A DNA stretch of 40,812 nt from a virus (lineage: Duplodnaviria > Heunggongvirae > Uroviricota > Caudoviricetes): the IMG/VR virus record IMGVR_UViG_2541047766_000005, one strand, 5' to 3'. Below the pieces are notes generated by a model that did not search any database, was not told the DNA's origin, and worked only from the letters and a program-made list of their open reading frames with translations. Both the position numbers and the translations under genes were made by a program. This document shows positions 18,574 through 40,453 of the stretch, in pieces (the stretch's first letter is position 1; each line of letters starts with the position of its first letter).

Positions 18574-19048
18574 CGTAATAGCGGCGATAAGTGGCGGGGC
18601 TATTGCTATAGCATCTGTGTTAATCACTGGCCCAAGTGGTAACGATGGTCTGGAAGGTGTCAGTTACATACCATACAAAGATATTGTTGGCGTATGGACT
18701 GTATGTCACGGACACACCGGAAAAGACATTATGCTCGGTAAAACGTATACCGAAGCAGAATGCAAAGCCCTCCTGAATAAAGACCTCGCCACCGTCGCCA
18801 GACAAATTAACCCGTACATCAAAGTCGATATACCGGAAACAACGCGCGGCGCTCTTTACTCGTTCGTCTACAACGTGGGTGCTGGCAATTTCAGAACATC
18901 GACGCTTCTTCGCAAAATAAACCAGGGCGATATCAAGGGCGCATGTGATCAGCTACGGCGCTGGACATACGCTGGCGGTAAGCAATGGAAAGGGCTGATG
19001 ACCCGTCGTGAGATTGAGCGTGAAGTCTGTTTGTGGGGGCAACAATGA
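18545..19048 (+). CDS. SAR endolysin (lysozyme, phage 21 R-like)
   Basis: 167-aa ORF with Gly/Ala-rich signal-anchor-release N-terminus and lysozyme E-x8-D-x5-T catalytic triad ([16 protein letters not shown]). Confidence 0.88.
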
Positions 19049-19136
19049 GCATGATTTGCTTTTTCATGGCAGCGTTGCTCGCATTGAATGGCAACGATGC
19101 GTGGCCGTGGTTTCTGGCCGTTGGGGTGTTGATGTC

Positions 19137-19604
19137 ATGAGTCGGTTAACCGCGATTATCTCCGCTCTGGTTATCTGCATCATCGTCTGCCTGTCATGGG
19201 CTGTTAATCATTACCGTGATAACGCAATCGCCTACAAAGAACAGCGCGATAAAAAAGTCAGTGAGCTGAAGCAGGCGGCTGCCACCATTACTGACATGCA
19301 GCAGCGCCAGCGTGATGCTGATGCGCTCGATGCTAAATACACGAAGGAGTTAGCTGATGCGAAAGCTGAAAATGATGCTCTTCGGCGCAAGCTTGATAAT
19401 GGTGGCAGGGTGCTCGTCAAAGGAAAATGCCCTGTGCCATCCTCAGCCGAAACCTCCAGCGCCTCCGGCATGGGCAATGATGCCACCGTCGAACTCTCTC
19501 CAGTTGCTGGACGAAACGTTCTCGGTATCCGGGACGGAATTATCCGCGACCAAACAGCACTGAGAACGCTTCAGGAATACATCAGGACGCAATGCCTTCG
19601 ATGA
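19137..19604 (+). CDS. Rz: Rz inner-membrane spanin
   Basis: 155-aa ORF from ATG 19137 with N-terminal transmembrane helix and coiled-coil periplasmic region; Rz1 embedded in +1 frame. Confidence 0.8.
19357..19563 (+). CDS. Rz1: Rz1 outer-membrane lipoprotein spanin (embedded in Rz)
   Basis: 68-aa ORF with lipoprotein signal (LIMVAGC lipobox) and proline-rich mature region, wholly inside Rz. Confidence 0.8.
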
Positions 19605-19780
19605 TAGCGATAATTTTACTCATCATCCTTCACATCTGGCTCTGTAGACAGGGTGGTGCTTACTTCTGGAGCGAATCCAGATTAAACATCTCATTGCTGA
19701 TGCTTGAATTTAAGCATATGGCGCGCGGTAAGGGGCTGCGTTGAGACAAGAGCCAGTTCATTACAAATACCAAGATTTTG

Positions 19781-19803
19781 CCTCGCATTCGCGGGGCTTT
19801 TTT
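19781..19803 (+). terminator. Candidate intrinsic terminator downstream of lysis genes
   Basis: CCTCGC-ATTC-GCGGGG hairpin (one G-U pair) followed by CTTTTTT. Confidence 0.4.
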
Positions 19804-19947
19804 ACATCTGAATTTCACCGCGCATCTCACGCGCATATTAACGAGAGCCTTTCAGTAAGCGAGCCTGAGAAATGCCGTTATAGGTGGCGACCTCTCTCGG
19901 GCGGCTTTTCTGTGAGACAGGCTCACTTTCTAAAAGGTAAAGACGCT

Positions 19948-20472
19948 ATGAATAATCCGTCAGTTATTCCGGCCTTTGACTTCCGAGAAATGGTGCAAGC
20001 TAAAAACGGAGAGGTCGTTACCACATCCAGAAAAGTTGCTACGTACTTCGGAAAGCGACACGGTGATGTGCTCAGGAAAATCGAGCAGGTTAAGGCCGAT
20101 TGCTCAAGAGAGTTTAGCCAACGCAATTTTGCGTCGGCTGATTATATCGATGAGCAGGGTAAGGTTCGCCCGATGTATAGCCTGACGAAAGATGGCTGGA
20201 TCATGGTTGTTATGGGATTCACCGGGAAAGCTGCTGCGGCTATCAAAGAAAGCTACATTTCAGCGTTCAACTGGATGTCTGAGCAACTTAGCCGTCGCCT
20301 GGCCATGGGTGAAGAAATGCAGCACCGCTACGCCATCAAAGAAACGCGCTCAAAGTTGAAGGGAACGATCGGTAGCCGGTTGATGAATGAGCGGAAGAAA
20401 GAGAAGCGCGTTCTTGAGCTAGAGCATGAGCACATCATGCAGGTGACGCAGCCAGAATTGCTGATTGGCTGA
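19948..20472 (+). CDS. rha: Rha-family phage regulatory protein
   Basis: 174-aa ORF from ATG 19948; VATYFGKRHGDVLRKIE motif typical of Rha; same position as rha in P22; track ORF has a TTG-initiated extension that spans the terminator-like hairpin. Confidence 0.7.
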   Translation: MNNPSVIPAFDFREMVQAKNGEVVTTSRKVATYFGKRHGDVLRKIEQVKADCSREFSQRNFASADYIDEQGKVRPMYSLTKDGWIMVVMGFTGKAAAAIKESYISAFNWMSEQLSRRLAMGEEMQHRYAIKETRSKLKGTIGSRLMNERKKEKRVLELEHEHIMQVTQPELLIG

Positions 20473-20538
20473 TTGACATTACAGAAACTCTTCACTGAGG
20501 TGCTTGGACAATGGCGCACCTAACGATGCGCCTAAAAC

Positions 20539-20799
20539 TCAACCCCTGTTGAAATTCTCTTTTGCTTCATTAATGAGATCTGAAGCGATCCGAAAGCTAT
20601 TAGGGTTGGAATTGCTAATCAAACCTTTAACTGTTTCTTCTAATTCAATCAGCGCCTGATTGCTGTGCGCAGACCTTGCAACGTTAGTCAATAAGGCAAC
20701 CAAAATTGCCTCATGGGCAATGGCATGTTCTTTATCAGTTGTTTCTATGCGAAGCGGGCTGTTGGATGATCGTAGGCTTGTTTGGTTGAACGAAGACAT
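20539..20799 (-). CDS. Hypothetical protein, antisense to late operon
   Basis: 86-aa ORF with AGGAGG SD 4-5 nt upstream of ATG; convergent with rha. Confidence 0.55.
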   Translation of the reverse strand: MSSFNQTSLRSSNSPLRIETTDKEHAIAHEAILVALLTNVARSAHSNQALIELEETVKGLISNSNPNSFRIASDLINEAKENFNRG

Positions 20800-20852
20800 T
20801 CTTCCTCCTATATGTCATTGGTAATTTTAACCGCCTTTGAAGGTATAACACT

Positions 20853-21059
20853 ATGTCCGACATCTACCAAATCACGCTAACCACCCAAACAGGCGAAACC
20901 TTCACTGGCAAGATGTCACGACGTCAGCATGAGCTGGTTAATGGCTTTGTGCCGCTGGCGACCGAGACAGGCGAGTAGCTGTACTTTGCTCCTGGTGATG
21001 CGAAGCGCGTGCAGTTCACGCCAGTAGCGGCAGGACAGACAGAGCAAACGACGGAGTAA
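20853..21059 (+). pseudogene. Small ORF interrupted by an in-frame amber codon (TAG at 20976-20978)
   Basis: ATG 20853 opens MSDIYQITLTTQTGETFTGKMSRRQHELVNGFVPLATETGE, then TAG, and the same frame continues for 26 codons to TAA. Confidence 0.3.
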
Positions 21060-21156
21060 CCTATGGCTAACGATGGAGAGCCTAGGTAATGTCCGCCAAT
21101 TATCTTTCCCGACTCTGGCAACTGGCATCCATGAGCCTTTTTACATATGCTGAGTA

Positions 21157-22062
21157 TTAACTGATATATCCATGAGCTTTGAGATAATTTTCTGCAATAA
21201 TCATACCTACTGGATTGATGACTAGTGAGTCAAGTTCTGTAAGGGTTGAAATACCAAAAGAGTCGAGAACTAATTTTGTAGCTGGGAATGCTTCATAAAA
21301 TGATGCATCAGATGTAAGAGTGTCATAACCCGTTCTTTTTGATAATAACTCTAAGTAATTGATATTATATATTTTATCTGAGAAAAATACGCCTTTAATT
21401 TCTAATAGCTGCTGATTTAGGCGTTTGAGGGTGAAATGTTCTCCAAGAAATTTTATATAATCTGTTTCATAAACAGCATACATTGACCTATGGATCATGT
21501 AATTTTCTTCCAAGGAAATGTTAGGTAGTGAAAAATGAGTACTTTTTTTCTCTGCAAGTTCTGTGATATTTATACTTCCTACCATCTTATTGATTGAACG
21601 TAAAAAATATACAAATGCCAAAAACTTAATATCATTAGTGGTCAGTCTGGATGTTGTATCTAACGCTTGATCGATCAAAATGCTTTGGTCTTCTTGATCG
21701 TTTTCAATTTTAGTAACTATTAACTCCTTAAGAAGTTCTGATTTTGCATCAAACCCCTTTCTTGCGACCTGAACGACTGCTTGATTGAGGGTGTACTGAA
21801 TATCGGGATCAGCGAGTTTTGCTCTTAGTTTTTCATCAACATCTTTAGATAGTTTTTCTGCAATTTGGTGACCAAATTCTTGAGCCCGTGAGTCGACTAA
21901 AGCGAATGCATCTTCACGAAGCGAAGCCATTTCACTTTTGACCATTAACTGGCAAATAGCCATGACCTCAGTAGTGGTGTTGCCAAAGTAGGCATCACCG
22001 GTAACTTGTATAGCTGAGGAGTTATCACCCACACTTTGACCGGATTTCTCGAATAAGCTCAT
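21157..22062 (-). CDS. Unknown-function 301-aa protein of an AT-rich antisense accessory cassette (candidate defence/exclusion effector)
   Basis: Long ORF in strongly AT-rich DNA, opposite to the late operon, between lysis module and terminase; ATGA overlap with upstream small membrane gene; no P-loop, HEPN or other motif I can recognise. Confidence 0.7.
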   Translation of the reverse strand: MSLFEKSGQSVGDNSSAIQVTGDAYFGNTTTEVMAICQLMVKSEMASLREDAFALVDSRAQEFGHQIAEKLSKDVDEKLRAKLADPDIQYTLNQAVVQVARKGFDAKSELLKELIVTKIENDQEDQSILIDQALDTTSRLTTNDIKFLAFVYFLRSINKMVGSINITELAEKKSTHFSLPNISLEENYMIHRSMYAVYETDYIKFLGEHFTLKRLNQQLLEIKGVFFSDKIYNINYLELLSKRTGYDTLTSDASFYEAFPATKLVLDSFGISTLTELDSLVINPVGMIIAENYLKAHGYIS

Positions 22063-22304
22063 TCTTTGTCCCTTTCATTAATAGTTATGTTGCCACCAAT
22101 TTGTATACCGCTAGAGTTATCGCCGATTGTTTGGCTAACACCTTGCTCTTTAGCTTTGTTGCTTTTTAGATTTGCTAAGGCTGTTAGAAAAACGACCAAA
22201 CTCGCTAATGCTGCTAGCGCTGTGGATAATGTTTGACTGGTTATGGCTTGATAGCCAAAGCCTAAAGCCGAACAAAAAGATACAAATACGATTAATTTTC
22301 TCAC
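22059..22304 (-). CDS. Small membrane protein of the same accessory cassette
   Basis: GTG start at 22304 6 nt after GGAG (track ORF starts at ATG 22361 inside the terS start region); two hydrophobic segments; C-terminal GDNSSGIQIGGN motif echoed at the N-terminus of the 301-aa partner. Confidence 0.6.
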   Translation of the reverse strand: MRKLIVFVSFCSALGFGYQAITSQTLSTALAALASLVVFLTALANLKSNKAKEQGVSQTIGDNSSGIQIGGNITINERDKE

Positions 22305-22325
22305 GAAAATCTCCAGAGATAAAAC

Positions 22326-22853
22326 ATGGCACTTACTGACAAGCAAGAAATGTTCTGTCACGAGTACCTCATCGATTTAAACGCCACGCAAGCGGCTATT
22401 CGTGCGGGGTACAGCGCAAAGACAGCTAACCGTACCGCATCCGAAAACCTGTCAAAACCTGACATCAAGTTAAGAATCGCCGAACTGAAAGCGCAACGCA
22501 ATGATCTTGTTGGTATTAATGCAGAATATGTACTTAATCGCCTTCTTGAAATCGACCAGATGGATGTGCTCGACATTCTTCTGCAAAACGGTGAGTTAAA
22601 GCCCATTAAAGACTGGCCTAAGGTATGGCGCACAACGCTATCAGGAATGGATGTTGTGGAGATGGTATCCGCAGATAGTGCCGCACTTCTGAAGAAAATC
22701 AAATGGCCTGATAAGGTTAAAAACCTCGAACTTCTTGGTAAGCATGTTTCTGTTCAGGCATTTAAAGAACAATCTTCTCACGAGCTAACCGGCAAAGACG
22801 GCGGCGCAATCCAGATAGAAACATCACCGATGAGCACTCTATTCGGAAAATGA
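22326..22853 (+). CDS. Terminase small subunit (Terminase_2-type)
   Basis: 175-aa ORF, N-terminal LTDKQEMFCHEYLIDLNATQAAIRAGYS typical of small terminase subunits; overlaps large subunit start. Confidence 0.8.
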   Translation: MALTDKQEMFCHEYLIDLNATQAAIRAGYSAKTANRTASENLSKPDIKLRIAELKAQRNDLVGINAEYVLNRLLEIDQMDVLDILLQNGELKPIKDWPKVWRTTLSGMDVVEMVSADSAALLKKIKWPDKVKNLELLGKHVSVQAFKEQSSHELTGKDGGAIQIETSPMSTLFGK

Positions 22854-24265
22854 CCACGATTAATCCTATCTTTGAACCGTTCATTGAGGCGCATCGCTAC
22901 AAAGTCGCCAAAGGCGGTCGAGGTAGCGGTAAATCATGGGCAATTGCGAGACTGCTTGTTGAAGCGGCGCGTCGGCAGCCGGTGCGTATTCTCTGCGCTC
23001 GCGAACTGCAAAACAGTATCAGCGATTCGGTAATCCGGTTGCTTGAAGATACCATCGAGCGTGAAGGGTATTCGGCTGAGTTTGAAATTCAGCGTTCCAT
23101 GATTCGTCATCTCGGAACGAATGCTGAGTTCATGTTCTACGGCATCAAAAACAACCCGACGAAGATTAAATCGCTCGAAGGCATTGATATCTGCTGGGTG
23201 GAAGAAGCGGAAGCGGTAACGAAGGAATCATGGGATATCCTGATCCCAACCATCCGTAAGCCGTTCTCTGAAATATGGGTGAGCTTTAACCCGAAGAACA
23301 TCCTCGACGATACCTATCAGCGATTCGTCGTAAATCCTCCCGATGATATTTGCCTGCTGACGGTGAACTACACCGACAACCCGCACTTTCCTGAAGTTCT
23401 CCGTCTGGAGATGGAAGAGTGCAAACGCAGAAATCCGACACTGTATCGTCACATCTGGCTTGGTGAGCCAGTAAGCGCAAGTGATATGGCAATCATCAAA
23501 CGTGAATGGCTTGAAGCCGCAACCGATGCGCACAAGAAACTCGGATGGAAAGCGAAAGGCGCTGTTGTCTCTGCGCATGACCCGTCAGATACAGGACCGG
23601 ATGCTAAAGGTTATGCATCGCGCCACGGTTCGGTAGTTAAACGCATTGCCGAAGGCCTGCTGATGGACATCAACGAGGGTGCTGACTGGGCTACTTCTCT
23701 GGCGATTGAAGACGGCGCTGACCACTACCTGTGGGATGGTGATGGTGTCGGTGCAGGGCTACGCAGACAGACAACGGAAGCGTTCTCCGGCAAGAAAATC
23801 ACCGCCACGATGTTCAAGGGAAGCGAATCGCCATTTGATGAAGATGCACCGTATCAGGCCGGAGCATGGGCTGATGAAGTCGTACAGGGTGACAACGTTC
23901 GTACTATTGGCGATGTATTCCGCAATAAGCGAGCGCAATTCTATTACGCACTGGCTGACAGGCTGTATCTGACATATCGGGCGGTTGTCCACGGTGAGTA
24001 TGCAGACCCCGACGACATGCTGAGCTTCGACAAAGAAGCGATAGGCGAGAAGATGCTGGAGAAGCTGTTTGCAGAACTGACGCAGATTCAGCGCAAATTC
24101 AATAACAACGGGAAGCTGGAGCTAATGACTAAGGTCGAAATGAAGCAGAAGCTCGGTATTCCATCTCCTAACCTGGCTGATGCACTGATGATGTGTATGC
24201 ATTGCCCGGAGTCGGCTGCGCAACCCGACTATTCCAGTTACTCAATTCCTTGTGGTGTAGGTTGA
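22850..24265 (+). CDS. Terminase large subunit (headful-packaging, Sf6/P22-like)
   Basis: 471-aa ORF with Walker A GRGSGKS and nuclease domain; N-terminus recalled as near-identical to Sf6 large terminase. Confidence 0.9.
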   Translation: MTTINPIFEPFIEAHRYKVAKGGRGSGKSWAIARLLVEAARRQPVRILCARELQNSISDSVIRLLEDTIEREGYSAEFEIQRSMIRHLGTNAEFMFYGIKNNPTKIKSLEGIDICWVEEAEAVTKESWDILIPTIRKPFSEIWVSFNPKNILDDTYQRFVVNPPDDICLLTVNYTDNPHFPEVLRLEMEECKRRNPTLYRHIWLGEPVSASDMAIIKREWLEAATDAHKKLGWKAKGAVVSAHDPSDTGPDAKGYASRHGSVVKRIAEGLLMDINEGADWATSLAIEDGADHYLWDGDGVGAGLRRQTTEAFSGKKITATMFKGSESPFDEDAPYQAGAWADEVVQGDNVRTIGDVFRNKRAQFYYALADRLYLTYRAVVHGEYADPDDMLSFDKEAIGEKMLEKLFAELTQIQRKFNNNGKLELMTKVEMKQKLGIPSPNLADALMMCMHCPESAAQPDYSSYSIPCGVG

Positions 24266-36275: not shown

Positions 36276-38039
36276 ATGACAGACATTACAGCCAATGTTG
36301 TGGTAAGCATGCCTTCGCAACTCTTCACTATGGCGCGTTCTTTTAAAGCCGTTGCCAATGGCAAAATTTATATCGGTAAAATTGACACTGACCCGGTAAA
36401 TCCTGAAAACCAGATTCAGGTTTATGTAGAGAACGAAGACGGCTCTCACGTTCCTGTTTCGCAACCAATCATCATTAACGCTGCTGGTTATCCGGTATAT
36501 AACGGACAGATTGCAAAGTTCGTTACCGTACAGGGACATTCAATGGCTGTGTATGACGCATATGGCACACAGCAGTTCTACTATCCAAACATTCTCAAGT
36601 ATGACCCGGACCAGTTCCGGCAGGAGCTAGAGGGAGAGTTTGCAAGCGGGGCATTCCCTGAAACAGTAAAGTATAAGTATGGATTACCATCTGTTGTTGA
36701 TGGTGCTGTCTTCAGGAATGTACAAGAAAAGCTGGATGATTTTGTATTTTTGGAAGACTTTGGTGGCAAAGATGATTCTGGAACAACAGATAATAGCATA
36801 GCCTTTCAGAAGGCATTCGCTTCAGGCGCAAGAAAAATTCACTTGAAAGGTTCTGGCATATATGGAATGAAGACCAGAGACATTGAGCTTCCAGCAAAAT
36901 ATGAAATTATTGGTAACGCAAAAAATCCAGAGATTAAATATCTAGGTTCTGATTCAACCTTCACTATGTTTACCCTTACAGGGTCTGGCCCGGCTGCTAG
37001 TCAGTGGAAACAGGGTGGCATATTCCGAGATGTAGTCATATCATCCGACGTGCTGATTAACTGGATTGTTTGTCGTCATGTCCAGAACTTAGAGTTTGAT
37101 CGGGTGTTTTTCTATAACGCACAAACTACTATGAACAACTACCATTACGTTAACTTCTTCCGGTGCGAACGTTGGGGTAGTCCATTCTTGGGGCGTGCGG
37201 ATTTAAATACTGTGGAGTTCATCAGCGAATCACCTAAGTTTCTTATGTGTTTCAGTTCTAACTCTCCGATTGACGTATGGGATACCGCCGATTTATTTAT
37301 TAGTGAATGCTCAATGTTTGCTGGAGATTTTGCGGTAAGAACACGCACAACACTTGGTGAGATGGGTGGAACAGACCAATTCGCGGGTTATCCGGTTATA
37401 ATTTCAAATAGCGTTTTTGATGCCATCAACGGTACTGCTTTTGATATGGAGAGTCTGGCTTACGCTACCATCAGCGGTAACATTATTAGTGCAGGGAGGA
37501 TAAACAATAGTCGTGGAATTAATATTAAAGGGGCAAGAAATCTAACATTTACGGGAAACACTATCACTTACTGTGGTGAGTTCGGCATGGTATTGGAAAA
37601 TGCTGAACAATGTTCTTTGTCTAATAATATATTCAACGGAAATAAGACTGGTGGGCTATCGTTGGTAAACTGTAAAGAAATATCTGTTATTGGCGGCTCT
37701 ATGGGTACGTCTTATATCAGAGGTGGATACTACGTGCAACCACTTGGGATCACAGACCCCGCCGATAACTGTAACGGCATAACCATCAATGGCGTTTCTT
37801 TCGATAGCGATATGACGACCAAGATTTACCTTAATACATCGGAAGAGCGCAAAAATCGTATTATAGCTTGTCTAGGTGTTAATGATACTCAGACGACTTA
37901 TCAAAACCGTGGATCTACTGCGCAGCGCCCTACAGCACCAGTCAGTGGGCAGATGTATTATGATACAACGCTAGGTCTTCCAATATGGTATAACACAGTA
38001 TCATCTGAATGGAAGAGGGCGGATGGTACAAGTGTATGA
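36276..38039 (+). CDS. Tailspike protein (P22 gp9-like head-binding domain plus distinct receptor-binding domain)
   Basis: 587-aa ORF; first ~110 aa match the P22 tailspike head-binding domain ([11 protein letters not shown]...YDPDQ); the rest diverges, consistent with a different O-antigen specificity. Confidence 0.9.
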
Positions 38040-38043
38040 TAAT

Positions 38044-38068
38044 GCGGGTGCTTAGCACCCGCTTATTT
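38044..38068. terminator. Bidirectional intrinsic terminator between tailspike and gtr operon
   Basis: GCGGGTGC-TTA-GCACCCGC hairpin flanked by T-rich tract, between convergent genes. Confidence 0.7.
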
Positions 38069-38070
38069 AA

Positions 38071-39537
38071 TTAATTGCAGTTGAATGTAATGTTTTTATC
38101 GTAAACAAAAATCTTCTTATCTCCGACGTCAATAACCTTTGATGGATTACCAATCTCTTTAATTGTTATATTTCTCATAACCTCGTCATCTGTAATTATG
38201 AAATTTCCTCCGCGCTCATACCAATAGTTTTTTGACAACCATTTATTGCATGCAAGTATATTCAAACCTCGGTTTACATCAATCGGAGCAATTGATATGT
38301 CTCCATCTATACTTGCTGATGAAGCAAACCAGAAAGATGCATACCCGTTTGTGAGGTTATTCTGCCTTACAGTGTGTTTTATCTGATTTATAATATCATT
38401 AGAATTGTCTTTTTTTTCATGCATATAAATAGAACAAAAGAGAATAAATGTTGTAACAACCCCTAATGCGATGAATTTCCACCCTCTGGAGTTGTTAGAT
38501 CTGCCAATAACAACAGGTGCTAGTATAAAAAATGGAACGATATATCTTATAGTCCATTCATCTATTGGACGGTTACTTGCAAGGTATGCTGGTATCATTA
38601 TAATACAAGCTATACATATAGCCATATTGATCATGGAGGTAAAGAATATTTCCTTTACTGACATTGCAACTAATATAAGAAGTAAAATCATTACAACAAA
38701 ACAAAAAACAGAAATAAGCGCTGTAATATCAGAAGGTGGCTTGCCAAAGAAGAAAGCTCCACTGTATAGGAGGAATCCTTTTACGAATAAGTATAAATTA
38801 TTCAGGATATCATCAAATGCAACAAATGTTGGATCTGGAACGCCTGGCAAAATGTACCAGTTATGAGCTCTTGCGTACATGGTCATAATTTTTGATGCAA
38901 CATATGCAAATATAGTTGCAACTAGTATGATCAGATTTTTTTGGCTTTTGGTTTTTACTATAAAAATCACTGATGATATTGCTACTGGTGCAATAATGAG
39001 TAGCTTTATGATGTCATCACTGAAACAAGCTAGAGCTAACACTAAAATATAAAGAGATAGAGAAATTAACGATCTTGTTTTGGAAAAATTGTCTAACATT
39101 ATGAAGCAAAACAACATGGATACATATGTGCCGACATGTATCACAGGTATTAATACGTTTAATACTGCAAACCCAGAAGGCAGCGCAACGCAAAATGAAA
39201 TGGCCCATAACGATGAAAGCCTTTCTTTTGAAAGATAAAATGTCATCAATGTAACCATTGAATACATAATTGCCGGTATGCAGTATGCTTGGTACTGTCC
39301 GTACCAGAATACCTTTGAAGCAAGCCCGTACCATATTATGTCTGTAAAATAGAATGATACTGTAGAGAGATACCATCCACTAAGCGTCCAATTTCCGTCC
39401 GCAATGTCCTTACCCTCAAGAAGTCCAGAAACAGCATCCGAACTTGGCAAAATCTGTTTTGAAATCGAGGCGTAGAAGAAAGTCAGGAATATAAATCCAA
39501 TGATGTATATGGCTGTTTTTTTTATATTTAAAGTCAT
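38071..39537 (-). CDS. Serotype-specific O-antigen glucosyltransferase (GtrC-type polytopic membrane protein)
   Basis: 488-aa multi-pass membrane ORF, very AT-rich, immediately downstream of gtrB in the gtr operon. Confidence 0.75.
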   Translation of the reverse strand: MTLNIKKTAIYIIGFIFLTFFYASISKQILPSSDAVSGLLEGKDIADGNWTLSGWYLSTVSFYFTDIIWYGLASKVFWYGQYQAYCIPAIMYSMVTLMTFYLSKERLSSLWAISFCVALPSGFAVLNVLIPVIHVGTYVSMLFCFIMLDNFSKTRSLISLSLYILVLALACFSDDIIKLLIIAPVAISSVIFIVKTKSQKNLIILVATIFAYVASKIMTMYARAHNWYILPGVPDPTFVAFDDILNNLYLFVKGFLLYSGAFFFGKPPSDITALISVFCFVVMILLLILVAMSVKEIFFTSMINMAICIACIIMIPAYLASNRPIDEWTIRYIVPFFILAPVVIGRSNNSRGWKFIALGVVTTFILFCSIYMHEKKDNSNDIINQIKHTVRQNNLTNGYASFWFASSASIDGDISIAPIDVNRGLNILACNKWLSKNYWYERGGNFIITDDEVMRNITIKEIGNPSKVIDVGDKKIFVYDKNITFNCN

Positions 39538-39538
39538 T

Positions 39539-40453
39539 TTACTTATCCTTTAGAATGTATCTTGGTCGCTGCTTAACTTCAACATAAATTCTTCCTATAT
39601 ACTCTCCAAGAACTCCTATGCCTATTAACTGAACTCCACCAAGAAACAATATTGATACAATGATAGAAGGGTAACCTGGAACACTATTTCCAAACATCAA
39701 TTTATCAGCAATCATCCATGCTCCATAAAGGAATGATAAGGTTGCCACAAACAGGCCTATATAAGTCCACATGCGCAAAGGGAAAGTAGAAAAGCTAGTG
39801 ATCCCTTCCAGCGCCAAGTTCCATAGCTTCCATCCATTGAACTTTGTGCTTCCTGCAACGCGTTCTGCTCGCGCATATTCTACGACATCGGTTCGACCAC
39901 CAACCCAGCTCAGCACACCCTTCATAAACAGGTTTCGTTCTGGCATGAGCTTAATGTTTTCTACTACTTCGCGAGACATGAGCCGGAAGTCGCCAACATT
40001 CTCTTCTATCTGAGGGTTGCTGATTTTGTTATGAAGTTTATAGAACCACTCAGCAGATTTACGCTTCAGCCTGCTGTCAGTGGAGCGGTCAGAGCGTTTA
40101 GCCAGAACCATATCTGCACCGGCCTGCCATTTCTCTATCAAGTGAGGAATAACTTCTATAGGGTCTTGCAGATCAACGTCAATCGGGATAATTGCCTCCC
40201 CGGTAGCATGGTCCAGACCTGCGAACAGGGCAGGTTCTTTGCCGAAGTTACGTGTGAACGACAGCGAAACCACAAGCGGGTCGGCAACAGCAAGCTCGTT
40301 GATAATTGATTCTGTAGCGTCTTTGCTGCCATCGTTTATGAAGACTATCTCGACTTCATGCTGCTGAAGCCCTTCAAATTCGCGCACGGTTTTATAAAAA
40401 ATAGGTATCGTGGCCTCTTCGTTAAAGACCGGAACGACTAAAGAAATTTTCAT
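39539..40453 (-). CDS. gtrB: Bactoprenol glucosyltransferase GtrB (GT2 family)
   Basis: 304-aa ORF with GT2 N-terminal domain (VVPVFNEE...DGSKD) and two C-terminal transmembrane helices. Confidence 0.9.

Follow-up and report, generated by a model that had tools for sequence, protein, structure and literature searches.

The closest described relatives of the locus that is the subject of this study are found in temperate phages of enterobacteria: the protein family phrog_6581 occurs in phages and prophages of Enterobacter, Citrobacter, Escherichia, Klebsiella and Salmonella, and has been seen in the isolated temperate phages CobraSix and ENT1 of Enterobacter, ENT47670 of Cronobacter, and vB_EhrS_49 and vB_EhrS_59 of Erwinia. 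In these relatives, the phrog_6581 gene has the orientation of the late operon and is located just upstream of the terminase gene or of a metallopeptidase gene; the CobraSix record ends with this gene, whose position just before the terminase is deduced. In the AF2 model of an intact phrog_6581 homologue (pLDDT 77), five strands form a small barrel, and residue 42 opens strand 4. The fold is predicted to be an Sm/SH3-like small β-barrel, and the nearest known systems for such a fold are the Sm/Hfq-like and SH3-like small β-barrels (Hfq, YaeO (Rof), PDB 3bdu).

Here, we have analysed an interrupted member of this family, together with its neighbours, in a stretch of viral DNA of 40,812 nucleotides, which we refer to as “the window”. 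The window corresponds to a prophage of E. coli that is P22-like and adjoins ybhC; it differs from a prophage of E. coli strain ST3 at just 7 positions. The order of its genes is as follows: int/xis, recombination genes, ral, sieB, a LexA-type repressor gene, cro, cII and replication genes in the first part; the nin region, Q, holin, lysozyme, Rz, rha, the interval between rha and terS, terS and terL in the middle part; portal, P22-type coat, gp4/gp10/needle, ejection proteins, tailspike and the gtr operon in the last part. The interrupted phrog_6581 gene is the sole damage in the late region of the prophage, and in the stretch that was examined, PGAP marks only one further pseudogene, a partial ead/Ea22-like gene of the early region.

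The interval between the stop of rha (20472) and the start of terS (22326) is 1853 nt long, with the rha-family gene forming its boundary on the upstream, late-operon side. It is an accessory, mosaic region, composed of four pieces rather than being a single unit: the pair of an 86-aa gene and the phrog_6581 gene, a 69-nt remnant of the 5' end of a metallopeptidase gene, a two-gene cassette of low GC, and short spacers (Table 1). An earlier reading of the bare sequence, the first-pass annotation, had described this region as an accessory island of roughly 1.8 kb between rha and the terminase; its size and its accessory nature have stood, but not its unity. A search of positions 19000-23000 against Rfam has found no known RNA element. 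The same interval occurs at 85% identity in a prophage of Enterobacter hormaechei B56 (locus L023), with the same layout as in the window (rha, the 86-aa gene, phrog_6581, LPO_1073, the 81-aa gene, terS), and there the phrog_6581 gene is intact, encoding 72 aa. Our overall reading of the interval, which we hold with considerable confidence, is that it contains a real 86-aa accessory gene and a null phrog_6581 allele, that the two form a linked pair, and that a cassette has overwritten the metallopeptidase gene next to them.

Table 1. Features in and around the interval between rha and terS, in window positions.
Feature	Position	Strand	Basis or remark
rha-family regulator gene	19948..20472	+	Pfam Phage_pRha E=3.6e-28; phrog_518 E=2.5e-77; RefSeq WP_001064346.1
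86-aa gene	20539..20799	-	ORF list; RefSeq WP_000093956.1 “hypothetical protein”
Divergent spacer between the two start codons	20800..20852	.	53 nt
Shine-Dalgarno AGGAGG of the 86-aa gene	20804..20809 (plus-strand CCTCCT)	-	sequence; 4 nt 5' of ATG
phrog_6581-family late-operon pseudogene (probable)	20853..21059	+	phrog_6581 match; RefSeq “pseudogene, internal stop”
Amber codon TAG at the Trp42 position	20976..20978	+	TGG in homologues; TTG (Leu) in sister allele L006
Metallopeptidase (PF18894-type) 5' remnant	21064..21132	+	69 nt, 23 codons, in-frame stop at codon 9
LPO_1073/Vpar_1526-family gene, 301 aa	21157..22062	-	NCBIfam NF045477 E=1e-27; phrog_19542
81-aa gene, apparently hydrophobic	22059..22304	-	overlaps start of LPO_1073 gene
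Terminase small subunit gene (terS)	22326..22853	+	RefSeq annotation; downstream boundary of the interval

The interrupted reading frame begins with ATG at 20853 and runs for 41 codons up to the TAG at 20976-20978, after which 26 sense codons follow before the TAA at 21057-21059. Both ORFs, the AGGAGG, the amber codon and the 26 open codons are found in the sequence exactly where the first-pass annotation had placed them. The open run after the stop has a probability of about 0.29 of occurring by chance [(61/64)^26], so that it is uninformative when taken alone; it is the homology of the encoded residues that gives it meaning. When Trp is restored at codon 42, the read-through translation of 68 aa matches phrog_6581 with E=1.1e-33, residues 1-65 being aligned with positions 1-65 of the 66 positions of the profile. 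Homologous proteins form 298 clusters, nearly all of 64-72 aa in length (64-114 aa among the 120 listed), i.e. the uninterrupted homologues of about 68 aa, for which a search had been proposed, do exist. The copy in the window is read in the late-operon direction, between the lysis and the packaging genes; the earlier description of both ORFs as antisense cargo thus fits the 86-aa gene and not the interrupted ORF, which follows the late operon and belongs to a widespread phage family.

The amber codon is located at a nearly invariant position: among the 120 homologues listed, which are all uninterrupted, position 42 is occupied by Trp in 118, by Leu in one and by Arg in one. A single base change separates the alleles, since the codon that is TAG in the window reads TGG in the loci L002, L003 and L004. 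The block WLYFAP-DVKRV-FTP, the best conserved of the family, is still encoded in the window, but its W is replaced and the rest is located beyond the stop. The codon of Trp42 became TAG by one base change, whether from TGG in one step or by way of the TTG of a sister allele, and translation would end there; because the stop is at codon 42, the product of 41 residues would lose strands 4 and 5 of the predicted five, along with the conserved block. On these grounds of sequence and predicted structure, we read the interrupted ORF as a probable loss-of-function pseudogene, i.e. a null allele of a late-operon gene, with the 41-aa product presumably devoid of function; the RefSeq/PGAP annotation already treats the ORF as pseudogenic, on account of its internal stop. 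The opposite reading of the short product, in which the N-terminal peptide of 41 residues is functional and the ORF has become a neo-functional short gene, could draw on the intact start codon, ribosome-binding region and first 41 codons, as well as on the fixation of the allele in its lineage. We consider it extremely unlikely, as such a peptide is predicted to retain only strands 1-3 of a five-stranded barrel, is deprived of the most conserved part of its family, and has no counterpart of about 41 aa among the 120 clusters listed.

The TAG allele is not a sequencing error, since it is present in 19 independent assemblies, as a search with an allele-specific pattern and BLAST has revealed: 13 complete E. 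coli genomes, five IMG/VR contigs and one metagenome contig of 262 kb. The complete genomes, which originate from Italy, Japan and elsewhere, were sequenced independently, and the resequencing that had been suggested for verification of the TAG is unnecessary. In three of the genomes with the TAG, a segment of the window (19129-22768) is found in a different backbone, which has a lambda-type holin, a GH24 lysozyme and a different terminase, and shares only this segment with the window; the occurrence of the TAG in two backbones means that the mutation predates the exchange of the module. To an artefact of sequencing or assembly that conceals an intact gene we give almost no credence: the one sequence that might speak for it, a metagenome contig of 584 nt (L006) that is the same as the window except for TTG in place of TAG, encodes Leu and not the Trp of the family, and is thus no “corrected” version of the gene. 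All other assemblies of this allele have TAG at the codon. The L006 allele could be an intermediate (TGG -> TTG -> TAG) or a pseudo-revertant (TAG -> TTG); in the latter case, it would hint at selection that restores the phrog_6581 protein.

Apart from the stop, the amber allele has few peculiarities. With W42 restored, it contains two other unusual substitutions, H26 and A50, and lies within the range of the family; it is no outlier in its deviations at conserved columns, and its dN/dS resembles that of intact pairs, although the gene is very short. The scarcity of other rare substitutions implies that the inactivation is recent, or that the gene is not decaying freely. Recoding or programmed read-through is excluded, as tRNA genes are absent from the window, TAG ends six of the 60 genes of the prophage (including cro, Q and holin), Rfam elements are lacking in the region searched, and no stable RNA structure follows the TAG (z=+0.59).

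A leaky or suppressed TAG, by which full-length protein would still be made at a reduced, regulated or attenuated level, is a separate matter, and we judge it to be very unlikely. The stop codon is followed by C, and UAG-C is a comparatively weak termination context in E. coli; furthermore, the reading frame remains open past the stop and has gathered few other harmful changes, and the allele has survived in two phage backbones. Against this, the prophage supplies no suppressor tRNA, uses TAG as the normal stop of six other genes and has no stimulatory structure downstream; none of the 120 homologues listed is interrupted at this position, and the Gln, Tyr or Lys that near-cognate read-through would insert at Trp42 would probably be damaging as well.

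The reading of the ORF as a null allele is accompanied by disruptions of phrog_6581 elsewhere, in the form of a decayed remnant in L007-L011, a deletion or frameshift in L031 and three in-frame stops in L005; these independent disruptions indicate that phrog_6581 is dispensable for the prophage. Loss of phrog_6581 beside an intact 86-aa gene is seen in the window, in the L007 group and in L031.

The second member of the pair, the 86-aa ORF, had been proposed as a minus-strand gene, and the comparison of its homologues supports this: they form 14 clusters at the 90% identity level and 8 at the 50% level, the 14 clusters having 59-99% identity, and pairwise dN/dS is 0.06-0.2, with dS being saturated. 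The family is tiny. An exhaustive profile search of 1.84 billion representative proteins has returned eight matches at E<=0.001, seven of them unnamed proteins of 85-88 aa and one a weak match inside a protein of 1985 aa. Its conserved motifs are the N-terminal SFNxSSLRS, (E/D)xHxIAHE(A/V)LL (HAIAHE) and IAxDLIxEA (IASDLI-EA), and the GGAG core of the Shine-Dalgarno sequence is kept in all head-to-head homologous loci. The 14 clusters with their conserved motifs, the low dN/dS and the confident AF2 model together establish that the gene is real; as judged from sequence comparison, purifying selection maintains it, and its orientation is antisense to the late operon.

In the AF2 model (pLDDT 83.7), the first 20 residues of the 86-aa protein, which are Ser-rich and conserved, are disordered, and are followed by a bundle of three helices (residues 22-44, 48-64 and 66-85). 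A Foldseek search of the model against PDB and BFVD has given no match at E<=0.001; Pfam, PHROGs and NCBIfam have returned nothing usable for the protein, tblastn against 50,697 phage genome records has returned no match, and profile searches of PDB sequences have been negative both for the 86-aa family and for phrog_6581. The only match from PADLOC is a weak, partial one to a Type II methyltransferase model (16 bits, 52 of 409 positions), on account of which we discount homology to Type II methyltransferases; the phrog_6581 protein has no PADLOC match. The two genes do not correspond to a catalogued defence or toxin-antitoxin system, given that PADLOC has produced no credible match and that the genes are located on opposite strands. 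A comparison of the 86-aa family with the antisense neighbours that phrog_6581 has in L002 and L005 has likewise shown no distant homology.

The 86-aa gene is found in the window and in the loci L007-L039, in backbones that are unrelated to one another (HK97-like, Sf6-like and P22-like), and in every locus it is located in the stretch that separates the lysis genes from the terminase, with an orientation opposed to that of the late operon. It is absent from the phrog_6581-bearing relatives L002-L004 and from L005. The GC content across the gene is 42-43%, versus 48-52% in the phage DNA upstream. A consensus scan has found no convincing sigma-70 site in the 53-nt spacer upstream of the gene and no T-run terminator after it; the spacer contains only conserved ribosome-binding regions, and the sole promoter candidate on the minus strand (21128-21099, 9/12 matches) is not conserved. 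We propose that the gene is an accessory gene (a “moron”) that is read against the late operon, and that its product would be a small soluble protein, with a predicted three-helix bundle and a Ser-rich N-terminal tail, that probably acts by binding another protein and not as an enzyme. The gene would not depend on late transcription for its expression, the prophage being the probable source; as no promoter has been identified, we can only infer such expression.

The pairing of the two families has been examined by grouping the loci that contain a relative of the 86-aa gene, down to 41% identity, into 14 lineages. A phrog_6581 gene or remnant immediately adjoins the 86-aa relative in 13 of them, L021 being the only lineage with an 86-aa gene and no phrog_6581. 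Most pairs are arranged head-to-head, with a spacer of 50-55 nt in every such locus, while L012/L024 and L016/L017/L036, which have phrog_6581 of the Erwinia type, are arranged tail-to-tail with overlapping ends; L019, which belongs to the same phrog_6581 subgroup as L012 and L016, is nonetheless head-to-head. The outer flanks of the pair vary between lineages. The distance matrices of the two partners are weakly correlated (Mantel r=0.39, p=0.045), and between the window and L018, synonymous divergence is saturated in the 86-aa gene versus 0.33 in phrog_6581. Unrelated antisense genes are also located beside phrog_6581: a 112-aa gene in L002, a 72-aa gene in L005, a DUF2158 gene in L018, a 235-aa gene in L037 and the LPO_1073 gene in the window. 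The pairing is most likely a matter of tight linkage at an insertion hot spot for accessory genes, through which the pair would be co-inherited, rather than of functional coupling; adjacency in two arrangements is less easily explained by linkage alone.

Functional coupling would mean that the 86-aa and phrog_6581 proteins form a two-component module, in which, for example, the 86-aa protein made by the prophage would bind, regulate or neutralise the Sm-like late protein of the prophage itself or of a superinfecting relative, and the amber mutation would be a tolerated or selected loss of the partner. Such a module is conceivable, but rather doubtful. It would account for the adjacency in 13 of the 14 lineages, at identities of the 86-aa protein down to 41%, for the persistence of the pair between variable outer flanks, for an adjacency that is kept in two arrangements, even within one phrog_6581 subgroup, for the weak correlation of the distance matrices, and for the three of the 13 lineages that have lost phrog_6581 and kept an intact 86-aa gene. 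It does not account for the large majority of phrog_6581 genes that have no 86-aa partner (298 clusters versus 14), or for the solitary 86-aa gene of L021; moreover, the unrelated antisense genes that flank phrog_6581 elsewhere fit a hot spot of insertion, and the discordant divergence from L018 suggests that alleles have been swapped with no obvious co-adaptation. The more specific proposal, that the 86-aa protein binds or controls the late barrel protein of its own phage or of related superinfecting phages and that the repeated losses of phrog_6581 reflect selection and not mere decay, is in our opinion unlikely.

The remnant at 21064-21132 matches the metallopeptidase of L002 with 57% identity over 23 aa (tblastn, E=1e-4); an intact metallopeptidase gene follows phrog_6581 in L002 and L035, and L021 has one beside its 86-aa gene. 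The cassette that follows the remnant, i.e. the LPO_1073 gene and the 81-aa gene, has a GC content of 29-42%; the 81-aa protein has only weak matches, to membrane and holin-like families, and a literature search on LPO_1073/Vpar_1526 has been uninformative. In our reading, this cassette was acquired separately and replaced the remainder of the metallopeptidase gene, leaving the 69-nt scar. The amber mutation is later than the acquisition of the cassette, since L023 combines the same layout, cassette included, with an intact phrog_6581. The proposed order of events is thus: formation of the pair, replacement of the metallopeptidase gene by the cassette, amber mutation, and exchange of the module between backbones.

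Except for a pairing that is unusually constant, the biology of the interval is the common mosaicism and decay of prophages, and what is new in it is only mildly so: the persistent pairing of two families and the insertion scar, the pseudogene being already present in RefSeq. The order of events helps to follow these prophages through clinical lineages of E. coli, the occurrence of the two families as a pair in P22-, HK97- and Sf6-like backbones provides a handle for testing the role of either protein, and the flanks of phrog_6581, as a hot spot of antisense accessory genes, are a good place to look for defence or exclusion genes that are expressed by prophages.

Lastly, we compare the locus with the known systems that it resembles. 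With the phrog_6581 genes of isolated phages, the copy in the window shares the full-length profile match, the orientation and the position upstream of the packaging genes, and it differs from them by the TAG at the near-invariant Trp42 and by the rare residues H26 and A50. Like other nonsense pseudogenes of prophages, it stems from one substituted base in a gene that lysogeny does not require, has become fixed in its lineage and is labelled “internal stop” by PGAP; it differs from them in that a Leu variant exists at the same codon and that little other damage is flagged. The 86-aa gene, for its part, resembles a moron in that only some of the relatives have it at this position of the late operon, in its opposite orientation and its GC content, lower than that of the phage DNA upstream, and in that the isolated phages with phrog_6581 do without it. 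It differs from a moron in that the consensus scan has given it no convincing promoter of its own and no terminator, in its distance of only 53 nt from the start codon of its neighbour, and, above all, in its partnership: a typical moron is free-floating, whereas the 86-aa gene is nearly always tied to one neighbouring family.

The comparison of the window with the prophages of E. coli Rb-23, 1002W03 and TUM14697 has revealed a common module of 3.6 kb, which begins in Rz and extends into the 5' part of terS, where positions 19129-22768 of the window are 98.4% identical to these relatives; the holin, the lysozyme and the terminase of the three prophages differ from those of the window. This segment is clearly a recombination module, the breakpoints of which are located within Rz and terS.

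In other phages, the same slots next to phrog_6581, a late-operon family, are filled by unrelated antisense genes, just upstream of the terminase (see table), which suggests that these slots are a hot spot for accessory genes. In several complete E. coli genomes, of which one has been inspected (locus L005), phrog_6581 itself persists as an unannotated, decayed remnant with several in-frame stops.

Coordinates of the features at and around the slots beside phrog_6581
Feature	Sequence	Position	Strand	Remark
Inverted repeat, GC-rich	window	about 20510-20535		GGCGCA, 8 nt, TGCGCC; flanked by the 3' ends of rha and the 86-aa gene, which converge here
Metallopeptidase (PF18894-type) gene remnant	window	21064-21132		phage gene, 5' end, 69 nt; codon 9 is an in-frame stop
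Two-gene cassette, antisense	window	21157-22304	-	GC 29-42%; 81-aa gene and LPO_1073/Vpar_1526-family gene
235-aa protein gene	L037	3037-3744	+	beside phrog_6581
DUF2158 protein gene	L018	2506-2688	+	beside phrog_6581
112-aa protein gene	L002	3266-3604	-	beside phrog_6581
72-aa protein gene	L005	3216-3434	-	beside phrog_6581
Decayed phrog_6581 remnant	L005	2950-3149		between KilA-N gene and terminase

In the window, the low-GC cassette has replaced the remainder of the metallopeptidase gene, and the remnant indicates where the cassette begins on its left side. Within this cassette, for which PADLOC returned no match, the 81-aa gene overlaps the LPO_1073/Vpar_1526-family gene (301 aa); as the 81-aa gene starts just 21 nt away from the start of terS, its promoter must be located inside terS. 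The same cassette is carried by a prophage of Enterobacter hormaechei.

For the amber codon of the window's phrog_6581 copy, a single instance of a variant was found, in a metagenome contig (ENA ERZ27246828 k141_24790) whose 584 nt are identical to the window except for this one codon: it reads TTG (Leu) at contig position 410 (window 20977), instead of TAG, and this allele represents either a step on the way to the amber allele or a pseudo-revertant of it.

Disorder is predicted (pLDDT about 50-70) for residues 1-20 of the neighbouring 86-aa protein (20539-20799), with the pattern MSSFNxSSLRSSxSP, which are among the best-conserved parts of the family, even in relatives that are 41-46% identical overall; this tail may serve as a linear motif for binding or recognition. 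The inverted repeat next to the 3' end of the gene could form a bidirectional stem-loop; a T-run is found there on neither strand.

Elsewhere, the prophage carries sieB, ral, a partial ead/Ea22-like pseudogene and, 3' of the tailspike gene, a gtrA/gtrB-like O-antigen modification operon. Its ends, read on the related locus L022 at 1-2200 and 37592-40333 (window coordinate = L022 + 479), place the integration site next to ybhC, a gene of the lambda attB neighbourhood.
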